Shown in pieces: positions 3,497 through 4,883 of a stretch of DNA of 22,035 bases (position 1 is the stretch's first letter; the number at the start of each line of letters is the position of its first letter). The position numbers and the translations under genes were made by a program. The stretch comes from a virus. The stretch lies in the UHGV virus genome UHGV-0200595; one strand, given 5' to 3'. The notes beneath the pieces were generated by a model. That model worked only from the letters and a program-made list of their open reading frames with translations. It was not told the DNA's origin and did not search any database.

Positions 3497-3889
3497 ATGT
3501 CTGAACCCTTATCCGGTTCCGGCACGGCTGCTGCGCTCGGAGGGGCGACGGTGTTCGGGCTGTTTACCGGAACGGATTTCGGGATTGTGTTTGGCGCATT
3601 TGCCGGGGCGCTGTTTGTGGCCACGATGCCGCAGGCGCTTTCAGCCTGGCGGGTGGCGGCGCATTTTCTGGTGTCGTTCATAGTCGGTGTGCTGGGAGCG
3701 CGTGTGCTGTCAGTCTGGATTGCATCAAAAACAGGTTATGACGGCACATCGGCGGATGCATTGTGCGCGGTGCTGGTATCGGTGGTGTCGGTAAAGGTTC
3801 TGTCGTTCATTCACCAGCAGGATATTACATCACTGGTGTCCGGCCTGTTCTCCCGCCTGCGGGGCGGAGGAGGTGGCAATGGCAGGTAA
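3497..3889 (+). CDS. Holin-like membrane protein (about 130 aa, three predicted TM segments, Gly-rich tail)
   Basis: AGGAG SD then ATG at 3497; three hydrophobic stretches; first gene of a lysis cassette directly upstream of the endolysin. Confidence 0.65.
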   Translation: MSEPLSGSGTAAALGGATVFGLFTGTDFGIVFGAFAGALFVATMPQALSAWRVAAHFLVSFIVGVLGARVLSVWIASKTGYDGTSADALCAVLVSVVSVKVLSFIHQQDITSLVSGLFSRLRGGGGGNGR

Positions 3890-4157
3890 TATTCCAGGAT
3901 TGCTGAATGTGGCGCTATGTACGGTTATCGTGCTGGCGCTTTTTTTTTACCGCAGAAAAGACGCCACGCATAAACCTCTGGTGTCGTGGCTAGCCTGGCT
4001 GCTGATGTTGATATATGCGGTCGCGCCGCTCAGTTTTCTGTGCGGTCGTCCTCTTCCCGGTAACTGGGCGGTGGTGCTGGCTAATCTGTTGTTCTGTGTG
4101 CTGGTGGTATGGGCGCGCGGGAATGTGTCAAAAATCCTTTCATTACTGAGGCACTGA
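3879..4157 (+). CDS. Second holin/antiholin-like small membrane protein (about 92 aa, three hydrophobic segments)
   Basis: Overlaps the stop of the preceding gene; GGAGGAGG SD upstream of ATG 3879 (GTG 3873 also possible); strongly hydrophobic. Confidence 0.55.
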   Translation: MAGNIPGLLNVALCTVIVLALFFYRRKDATHKPLVSWLAWLLMLIYAVAPLSFLCGRPLPGNWAVVLANLLFCVLVVWARGNVSKILSLLRH

Positions 4158-4158
4158 G

Positions 4159-4704
4159 ATGAAATCGAAGGACGTTATTTTTGATGAAATCCTCGGAAAA
4201 GAGGGAGGCTACGTAGACCATCCCGATGACAAGGGCGGCCCGACAAAGTGGGGTATCACTGAAAAAGTGGCTCGGGCACATGGATACCTTGGCGATATGC
4301 ACGATTTAACTCGAGGACAGGCGCTGGAAATTCTCGAGGCTGATTACTGGTACGGACCCCGTTTCGACCAGGTTTCCGCGTTATCCCCCGATATTGCCGC
4401 CGAGCTGTGCGACACGGGTGTGAATATGGGGCCGTCCGTGGCGACGAAGATGCTTCAGCGCTGGCTGAACGTATTCAACCAGGGCGGAAAACTTTACCCG
4501 GATATGGATGCCGATGGGCGTATCGGCCCACGGACTCTTAATGCGTTACGGGTATATCTGCAAAAACGAGGCAAAGACGGTGAACTGGTGTTGCTCACAT
4601 CGCTGAACTGCACGCAGGGAGAGCGCTACCTTGCTCTGGCCGAGAAACGCGAGGCTAATGAGTCCTTTGTATACGGCTGGATGAAGGAGCGCGTCGCACT
4701 ATGA
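4159..4704 (+). CDS. Endolysin, glycoside hydrolase family 108-like N-terminal domain with C-terminal peptidoglycan-binding domain (181 aa)
   Basis: EGGYVDHPDDKGGPTKWGIT motif characteristic of GH108 lysozyme-like proteins; position after holins. Confidence 0.75.
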   Translation: MKSKDVIFDEILGKEGGYVDHPDDKGGPTKWGITEKVARAHGYLGDMHDLTRGQALEILEADYWYGPRFDQVSALSPDIAAELCDTGVNMGPSVATKMLQRWLNVFNQGGKLYPDMDADGRIGPRTLNALRVYLQKRGKDGELVLLTSLNCTQGERYLALAEKREANESFVYGWMKERVAL

Positions 4705-4883
4705 AGCGAAAGCACAGGACACATCGAATGCCGCGAACAAAAACGAAAAAGGCACTGGTAGCGATACTGGTGCCCTTTTTGTTAGTGGGCTGCGCCAGCC
4801 TGGAAAAAGCGCGTCAGCTTTTCGATACCGCTTCTCAGGTCTGCCGGCTTATTAATAGCGTGCGGCAATGTACGCAGAACTGA
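4701..4883 (+). CDS. Small lipoprotein (lipobox LLVGC), possible o-spanin-like lysis accessory protein
   Basis: Basic n-region, hydrophobic core ALVAILVPFLLVG, Cys lipobox; start overlaps endolysin stop (ATGA); internal ATG at 4728 is an alternative start; short mature part carries three Cys. Confidence 0.5.
   Translation: MKRKHRTHRMPRTKTKKALVAILVPFLLVGCASLEKARQLFDTASQVCRLINSVRQCTQN

Follow-up and report, generated by a model that had tools for sequence, protein, structure and literature searches.

The stretch of virus genome UHGV-0200595 analysed here (the window, 22,035 nt) belongs to the late region of a P22-like prophage, of which it covers only a part, and carries at positions 3497-4883 a lysis cassette that ends in a gene for a small lipoprotein. 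On balance we favour the reading that this lipoprotein is an outer-membrane-disruption protein that works without a canonical inner-membrane spanin subunit (i-spanin), as far as sequence and gene order allow such a reading. The gene behaves as expected for the third, outer-membrane component of lysis: its terminal position is kept while holins and endolysins are exchanged, it travels with lysis and not with tail genes, is coupled to the endolysin and has no detected promoter of its own, and the sole copy found beside a spanin, in phage GER2, has decayed.

The region 3497-4883 is the complete late-operon lysis cassette of the prophage and consists of four tightly packed genes, whose coordinates in an earlier note on this DNA were reproduced by a check of the open reading frames (ORFs). 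That note had described two holin-like proteins, a GH108-type endolysin in place of a P22 gp19-type lysozyme, and a Cys-containing lipoprotein that is neither proline-rich nor equipped with a C-terminal transmembrane (TM) segment, and it had found no i-spanin; these observations hold.

Features of the lipoprotein

The lipoprotein precursor (4701..4883, + strand, 60 aa) has the sequence MKRKHRTHRMPRTKTKK-ALVAILVPFLLVG-C-ASLEKARQLFDTASQVCRLINSVRQCTQN and matches phrog_7528, whose function is unassigned, at E 4e-30. A basic n-region (codons 1-17, 4701-4751) is followed by the h-region with the lipobox LVGC (codons 18-31, 4752-4793) and by a mature protein of 30 aa, Cys31-Asn60 (4791-4880), which contains three Cys, zero proline and no hydrophobic C-terminal segment. 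In the alignments the lipobox and C31, C48 and C57 are invariant across the whole family, both subfamilies included. Residue +2 is A, V, E, T, S or G and never Asp, from which sorting to the outer membrane is predicted in enterobacteria. Lipobox signal and predicted sorting are those of an outer-membrane spanin subunit (o-spanin), and C48 and C57 would be available as the periplasmic Cys residues with which such subunits form intermolecular disulfides.

AlphaFold predicts a single continuous helix over residues 12-59 with a mean predicted local distance difference test (pLDDT) score of 79. The 30 mature residues are amphipathic, with a hydrophobic moment of 0.5-0.67 over 18 residues, and the net charge of the mature part lies between -1 and +3 across the family. 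The predicted helix presents C48 and C57 on different faces, and the subfamilies differ by one residue in the distance between the two, which favours intermolecular over intramolecular disulfides, as in Rz1.

Variable sites of the mature region are distributed 8/6/21 over the three codon positions and the ratio of non-synonymous to synonymous substitution rates (dN/dS) is 0.25-0.38; the lipoprotein gene is thus a real coding gene under purifying selection. Its true start is M1 and not M10, because the homologues have M, T, V or I at position 10 whereas residues 1-9 are conserved. Many E. coli records start the protein at M10 (51 aa), and in a metagenome contig identical to the window the gene is uncalled. 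Annotation errors at the gene also include locus L176 (7145-7497) and gene L32 of phage phiP27, an out-of-frame call lying over the lipoprotein gene (L003 4524-4755 = phiP27 20630-20861).

Distribution and genomic context

The lipoprotein family is narrow and enterobacterial, with members in Escherichia, Salmonella, Citrobacter, Cronobacter and Lelliottia; of 5426 complete E. coli genomes, at least 315 carry it. In the databases its proteins go under 'hypothetical protein' or 'lipoprotein', except for the nr entry of the window protein, 'LPP20 lipoprotein factor'. About 170 loci were collected, and the context statistics are based on the 128 non-identical contexts whose upstream DNA extends over at least 1.7 kb.

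A same-strand endolysin gene lies upstream in 127 of these 128 contexts and encodes an M15 peptidase (90), a GH108 enzyme (34) or a CHAP enzyme (3); in the sole context without an intact endolysin a GH108 gene is cut by an insertion. The holin set is either a holin_8/holin_3_7 pair or a lambda-S-type holin (PF05106), and a Phage_holin_8-type gene is found 5' of the lipoprotein gene in most related loci. The lipoprotein gene is the last of the cassette whichever holin and endolysin are used, and starts within 30 nt of the endolysin stop in 56 of the 127 endolysin contexts (44%). In the window the lipoprotein ATG overlaps the endolysin TGA as ATGA; an ATG/stop overlap also occurs in locus L063 and in a Mu-like prophage on an E. 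albertii plasmid, which has the same ATGA overlap with a GH108 gene, while the two genes abut in L087 and are 6 nt apart in L088. No sigma-70-like promoter was detected on the + strand in the scanned region 2000-5300, so that expression of the lipoprotein is expected only together with the late lysis genes.

Carriers of the gene are P22-like (the window), contractile-tailed (phiP27), lambda-like (phiSTEC1575-Stx2k) and Mu-like, and a function bound to a single receptor or tail type is unlikely with four types of host phage. The suggestion of the earlier note that the outer membrane may be breached by a different partner or mechanism gains support from the cassette-terminal position of the gene with three endolysins, two holin sets and four phage types. 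GER2-type Rz is present in none of the 128 contexts, and no type II membrane protein is conserved near the lipoprotein gene in the related loci. The copy in GER2 is the only one found beside an S-R-Rz/Rz1 cassette and is a pseudogene with three in-frame stops, a hint, at the level of sequence, at redundancy with Rz/Rz1. SerU-LTIIb carries the same holins and GH108 endolysin, with LT-IIb toxin genes replacing the lipoprotein gene.

The lipoprotein gene contains a terminator-like hairpin (4751..4784, + strand, codons 17-28, in the h-region) with a 10-bp stem, a GCGA (GNRA) loop and a T-run, for which terminator scan and folding gave a free energy (dG) of -21.8 kcal/mol and z -4.7. The hairpin is kept in 24 of 24 sequence variants from Q-antiterminator contexts, the GER2 pseudogene included (equivalents at L087 5752-5816, L088 6036-6100, L006 around 2520-2560 and L175 3536-3600), and codons 19-26 show depressed synonymous variation. 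The Mu-like copy lacks the hairpin and its h-region differs. The structure has the appearance of a real intrinsic terminator that is tolerated under antitermination of late transcription, and makes the signal peptide look better conserved than the mature protein. A stable, functional signal peptide in the style of the bacteriocin release proteins is a weakened candidate, because the invariance of the h-region coincides with the RNA hairpin and the Mu-like h-region differs. Rfam gave no match in 2000-5400.

Search for a spanin and for known relatives

ORFs of 45-260 aa on both strands of the window were scanned for one N-terminal TM segment followed by a tail of at least 30 aa. No Rz-like i-spanin was found in the 22-kb window; besides alternative-frame artefacts the scan delivered a single genuine candidate. 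As a positive control, a scan of this style detected both Rz and Rz1 of phage GER2. Embedded and alternative-frame ORFs in 3497-4883, which the earlier note had proposed to search for spanins, are all shorter than 50 aa, and none combines a TM segment with a tail. The genuine candidate is an HkcB-like ORF at 21293-21667 (- strand) with N-terminal TM segment and coiled coil, which lies on the opposite strand and 16 kb off. It belongs to phrog_5962, also occurs in HK620 (HkcB), epsilon34 (gp14) and CUS-3, and was rejected as a dedicated partner; for CUS-3 and epsilon34 an Rz1-type o-spanin of their own, from the HK97-type embedded family, is on record (PMC6139136). This type II membrane protein is encoded 3' of the ejection-protein genes and shows a weak PADLOC match to DpdH (E 8e-5).

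No i-spanin gene thus embeds, overlaps or adjoins the lipoprotein gene in the window, and none is conserved in this arrangement in the related loci. The C-terminal TM segment of a unimolecular spanin is likewise absent, the mature 30 aa being hydrophilic to amphipathic. In the complete genomes of phiP27 and phiSTEC1575 a spanin is neither annotated nor picked up by the ORF scan, the lipobox pattern of which missed the target lipoprotein itself, so that the scan is not exhaustive.

Among known families, neither PF02402 (Lysis_col) nor any other Pfam family matched the lipoprotein at E up to 1. Mimicry of Lpp/OprI was rejected (NCBIfam NF040598, E 0.07, 13.6 bits against a cut-off of 43), as was homology to Lpp, since hhalign of the mature-part profile against E. 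coli Lpp returned a probability of 0.3%. The Cor PHROG scores just E 0.13, and the homology, the linkage to tail or receptor genes and the own promoter that mark exclusion or conversion lipoproteins such as Cor, Bor and Llp were not found for the lipoprotein gene. The match to phrog_1275, 'Rz-like spanin', has E 0.004, falls below significance and covers mostly the signal peptide. PADLOC gave no match to the lipoprotein, and no related protein was found among solved structures. A profile search of 1.84 billion representatives for remote homologues returned 24 clusters, all of the same family.

In their 2018 census Kongari et al. list phiP27 with a 'separated' two-component spanin, both subunits of which form singleton families and whose combined periplasmic length of 62 residues is the shortest among the two-component spanins (PMC6139136). 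The o-spanin (20706-20861, start at M10) and the i-spanin (20348-20542, 64 aa) are separated by 164 nt there, with the i-spanin upstream (PMC6139136). The listed o-spanin is a direct homologue of the window lipoprotein with 75% identity. The listed i-spanin starts with TTG, and among the first 87 sequences compared phiP27 alone contains this ORF. No PHROG matches it, and it overlaps, in antisense orientation, a 90-aa ORF with a match to phrog_36812 (E 5e-20); from this sequence evidence the listed i-spanin is probably a spurious antisense ORF. The word 'lone' in the earlier note therefore stands in so far as no conserved partner exists, and needs qualification in so far as the phiP27 homologue is listed as a paired o-spanin (PMC6139136). 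According to the same census about 13% of the phages of Gram-negative hosts have no identifiable spanin, 31 genomes carry a lipoprotein gene without a linked i-spanin, and spanin-less lysis is treated as open (PMC6139136). No published test of the phrog_7528 family was found in the literature.

Holins and endolysin

The first gene of the cassette (3497..3889, + strand) is preceded by a strong ribosome-binding site, AGGAGA, and encodes a holin-family protein of 130 aa that matches PF16931 Phage_holin_8 at E 5e-23 (81.9 bits against a Pfam gathering threshold of 26.4) and the holin family phrog_198 at E 1e-41. Its hydropathy profile shows three hydrophobic blocks with room for 3-4 TM segments. 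The second gene (3873/3879..4157, + strand) starts at GTG 3873 (94 aa) or ATG 3879 (92 aa), overlaps the end of the first and encodes a protein matching PF05449 Phage_holin_3_7 at E 3e-18 (66.1 bits, threshold 25.4) and the holin family phrog_217 at E 2e-34; its three hydrophobic blocks correspond to three TM segments. Both proteins thus exceed the hidden Markov model thresholds, have several predicted TM segments and are encoded 5' of the endolysin gene, and hole-forming activity is predicted for them.

The endolysin (4159..4704, + strand, 181 aa) contains the domains PF05838 Glyco_hydro_108 and PF09374 PG_binding_3 (E about 1e-25 each) and matches Sen1395 (PDB 6V3Z) at E 2e-109. Purified Sen1395 hydrolyses peptidoglycan (PMC6996933). 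With both domains and a close relative of demonstrated activity, the protein is classified by sequence as a GH108 muramidase. Inspection by eye revealed neither a signal sequence nor a signal-anchor-release (SAR) sequence, so that export presumably proceeds via the holin.

Proposed mechanism and alternative explanations

In the favoured scheme the two holin-family proteins would make the inner membrane permeable at a defined moment, one possibly as the holin and the other as co-holin or antiholin, and the soluble GH108 muramidase would next reach and degrade the peptidoglycan. The product of the fourth gene would be lipidated on Cys31, sorted by the Lol system to the inner leaflet of the outer membrane and accumulate there as a 30-residue amphipathic helix, possibly cross-linked between molecules through the two invariant Cys. 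With the wall gone, turgor would press the inner against the outer membrane, and the tethered helix would destabilise or fuse both without an Rz-type partner. It may act by insertion into, or fusion with, the inner membrane after wall loss, or by a purely outer-membrane effect analogous to that of the small colicin lysis lipoproteins. The stronger proposal, that a lipid-tethered, disulfide-capable helix of 30 residues suffices alone for the last step of lysis and represents a third class of disruptor beside spanins and disruptin, is put forward tentatively and is rather doubtful at present.

Several points weigh against the favoured reading. The lysis role of the lipoprotein is deduced from gene position only. 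A helix of 30 residues measures about 4.5 nm (calculated with 1.5 Å per residue) and cannot span the periplasm, so that its action must assume membrane apposition after wall loss or a purely outer-membrane effect, and the net charge of -1 to +3 sets it apart from cationic antimicrobial-type peptides. SerU-LTIIb lacks the lipoprotein, which shows that a prophage can at least be maintained without the gene. Over half of the contexts have small membrane proteins encoded between endolysin and lipoprotein, possibly partners missing from the window. Finally, the prophage is seen only as the 22-kb window and a further 2.4 kb upstream, by which the longest of the public contigs with an identical endolysin extends it.

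Bor, Cor and Llp of T5 are phage lipoproteins with roles other than lysis. On these precedents, the lipoprotein might be a late outer-membrane protein that disrupts nothing and instead blocks re-adsorption or superinfection, sets the timing of lysis or is a mere passenger, which we consider unlikely; that such phages need no dedicated outer-membrane step, as would then follow, is equally unlikely. Consistent with a role outside lysis are the absence of the gene from SerU-LTIIb, the very short mature peptide and the lack of significant homology to a characterised lysis protein, the phrog_1275 match being mostly signal peptide. In phages of four virion types the gene nevertheless travels with lysis and not with tail genes; it shows translational coupling to three unrelated endolysins with no promoter of its own detected, has no PADLOC match and no significant similarity to Cor, and has decayed in the copy beside Rz/Rz1, all of which speak for a function in lysis.

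The intervening small membrane proteins suggest a second alternative, namely that the lipoprotein is the outer half of an unconventional two-component spanin, the inner half being a small protein with a C-terminal TM segment. Such proteins, of no fewer than four unrelated families (CTM57/CTM60, TM44, a 79-aa and a 50-aa family), have stops 1-4 nt from the lipoprotein ATG (L001 3862-4196, L004 2326-2499, L006 1121-1273, L009 3508-3747, L032 3495-3647), and Kongari et al. raise type I proteins with C-terminal TM segment as possible i-spanins (PMC6139136). The cassette of the window would then have lost its partner and be crippled or borrow a host factor. Both parts of this explanation appear improbable, as 56 of the 127 endolysin contexts, long prophage contigs among them, lack such a gene, and the Lys/Arg-rich N-termini of the small proteins are predicted by the positive-inside rule to face the cytoplasm, leaving almost no periplasmic domain. 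A CTM57 homologue also lies between R and Rz in GER2 and is thus not specific for the lipoprotein, and the candidate partners match only PHROGs of unassigned function (phrog_4493/1115, phrog_4906 and others) and no Pfam family. As an observation in its own right, these proteins may be so far unrecognised accessory lysis factors.

A conventional i-spanin or full Rz/Rz1 pair elsewhere in the prophage, with the lipoprotein as an ordinary separated o-spanin, is highly improbable: the window shows only part of the prophage, spanin genes distant from the other lysis genes are known from T4 and the census paired the phiP27 homologue with an upstream ORF (PMC6139136), but that ORF is the phiP27-only antisense one described above, no further candidate was seen in the complete genomes of phiP27 and phiSTEC1575, and a distant partner would be lost as the cassette shuffles among four phage types.

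Far from exotic, the cassette is common, and one homologue of the lipoprotein is already catalogued, while the evidence that the lipoprotein stands alone is new. How the outer membrane is breached without spanins is an acknowledged open question (PMC6139136), for which the lipoprotein family, present in prophages of E. coli and Salmonella and in Stx2e and Stx2k phages, the inducible Shiga-toxin phage phiP27 included, is a tractable case. If the lipoprotein acts alone, no smaller outer-membrane-disrupting lysis protein is known, and it would be widespread and a candidate tool for controlled lysis or permeabilisation of the outer membrane. If it does not, the phiP27 census entry, the missed genes and the wrong start codons still need correction.

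Neighbouring genes

Upstream of the cassette the window contains genes for NinB (619-1218), followed by an HNH protein, and for a Q-type antiterminator (1505-2047). A truncated methyltransferase remnant (2154-2660) with TTG start, of which only the C-terminal part is left, lies 3' of Q; its counterpart in phiP27 (L24) is full length. The toxin-antitoxin pair hicB/hicA (hicBA, 2723-3397, minus strand) is an insert that separates the Q-methyltransferase region from the lysis cassette. At its 5' end lies a 64-nt inverted repeat (3382-3445, dG -27.1 kcal/mol, z -6.6), possibly an operator, and a small terminator-like hairpin (3457-3472) is located directly ahead of the first holin gene.

Downstream of the lipoprotein gene follow a ParB_N-domain protein (5056-5931), which also matches the N-terminal part of PADLOC MTase_II, and a TET-associated glycosyltransferase (PF20691, 5903-6775) paired with it between the lysis and the terminase genes. 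Conservation of the pair extends to several E. coli relatives, and it is possibly a DNA-modification module, with no TET enzyme in view. A very stable hairpin (5019-5061, dG -29.2 kcal/mol, z -6.0) overlaps the start of the ParB_N gene; a 32-nt block of it is found exactly in 16 of 172 loci ahead of differing genes, for example in phiP27 (21343-21374) before an HNH gene and near cos. Genes for the small and large terminase, a P22-type portal, scaffold, coat, head-completion and ejection proteins follow.

Comparison with known systems

With lambda Rz1 and other o-spanins the window lipoprotein shares the lipobox, a residue other than Asp at +2, a very short mature part, periplasmic Cys and the cassette-terminal gene. 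It differs from them by the lack of an adjacent, overlapping or embedding i-spanin gene and as a proline-free amphipathic helix, whereas Rz1 of GER2 is proline-rich (5 Pro). The combined periplasmic length would be far below that of every other two-component pair. The unimolecular spanin gp11 of T1 is likewise the product of a single cassette-terminal gene with N-terminal lipoprotein signal, but the window lipoprotein has no C-terminal TM segment or long periplasmic domain, and its 30 residues cannot bridge the membranes.

Colicin lysis or bacteriocin release proteins are tiny lipoproteins with a mature part of about 28-33 aa, which permeabilise the outer membrane alone, reportedly via the phospholipase OmpLA and in a Mg2+-sensitive manner; they are Gly/Ser-rich and are not known to carry the two extra Cys. 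The resemblance to these proteins (PF02402) is functional only, with no sequence similarity: the window lipoprotein is predicted to be helical, has two extra invariant Cys and belongs to a phage cassette and not to a colicin operon.

Disruptin (phiKT gp28) is a single small protein proposed or shown to replace the spanins in a spanin-less coliphage and is described as a cationic antimicrobial-type peptide (bioRxiv 10.1101/515445). The window protein, by contrast, is a lipoprotein with a net charge of -1 to +3. To our knowledge disruptin is not lipidated.

The cassette of phiP27 (holin L28, holin L29, endolysin L30) has the same holin families at 73-87% identity and the same lipoprotein. In phiP27 the endolysin is an M15 endopeptidase and the lipoprotein gene lies about 480 nt past it behind phiP27-specific inserts, whereas in the window the endolysin is a GH108 muramidase, the gene of which the lipoprotein gene overlaps directly.

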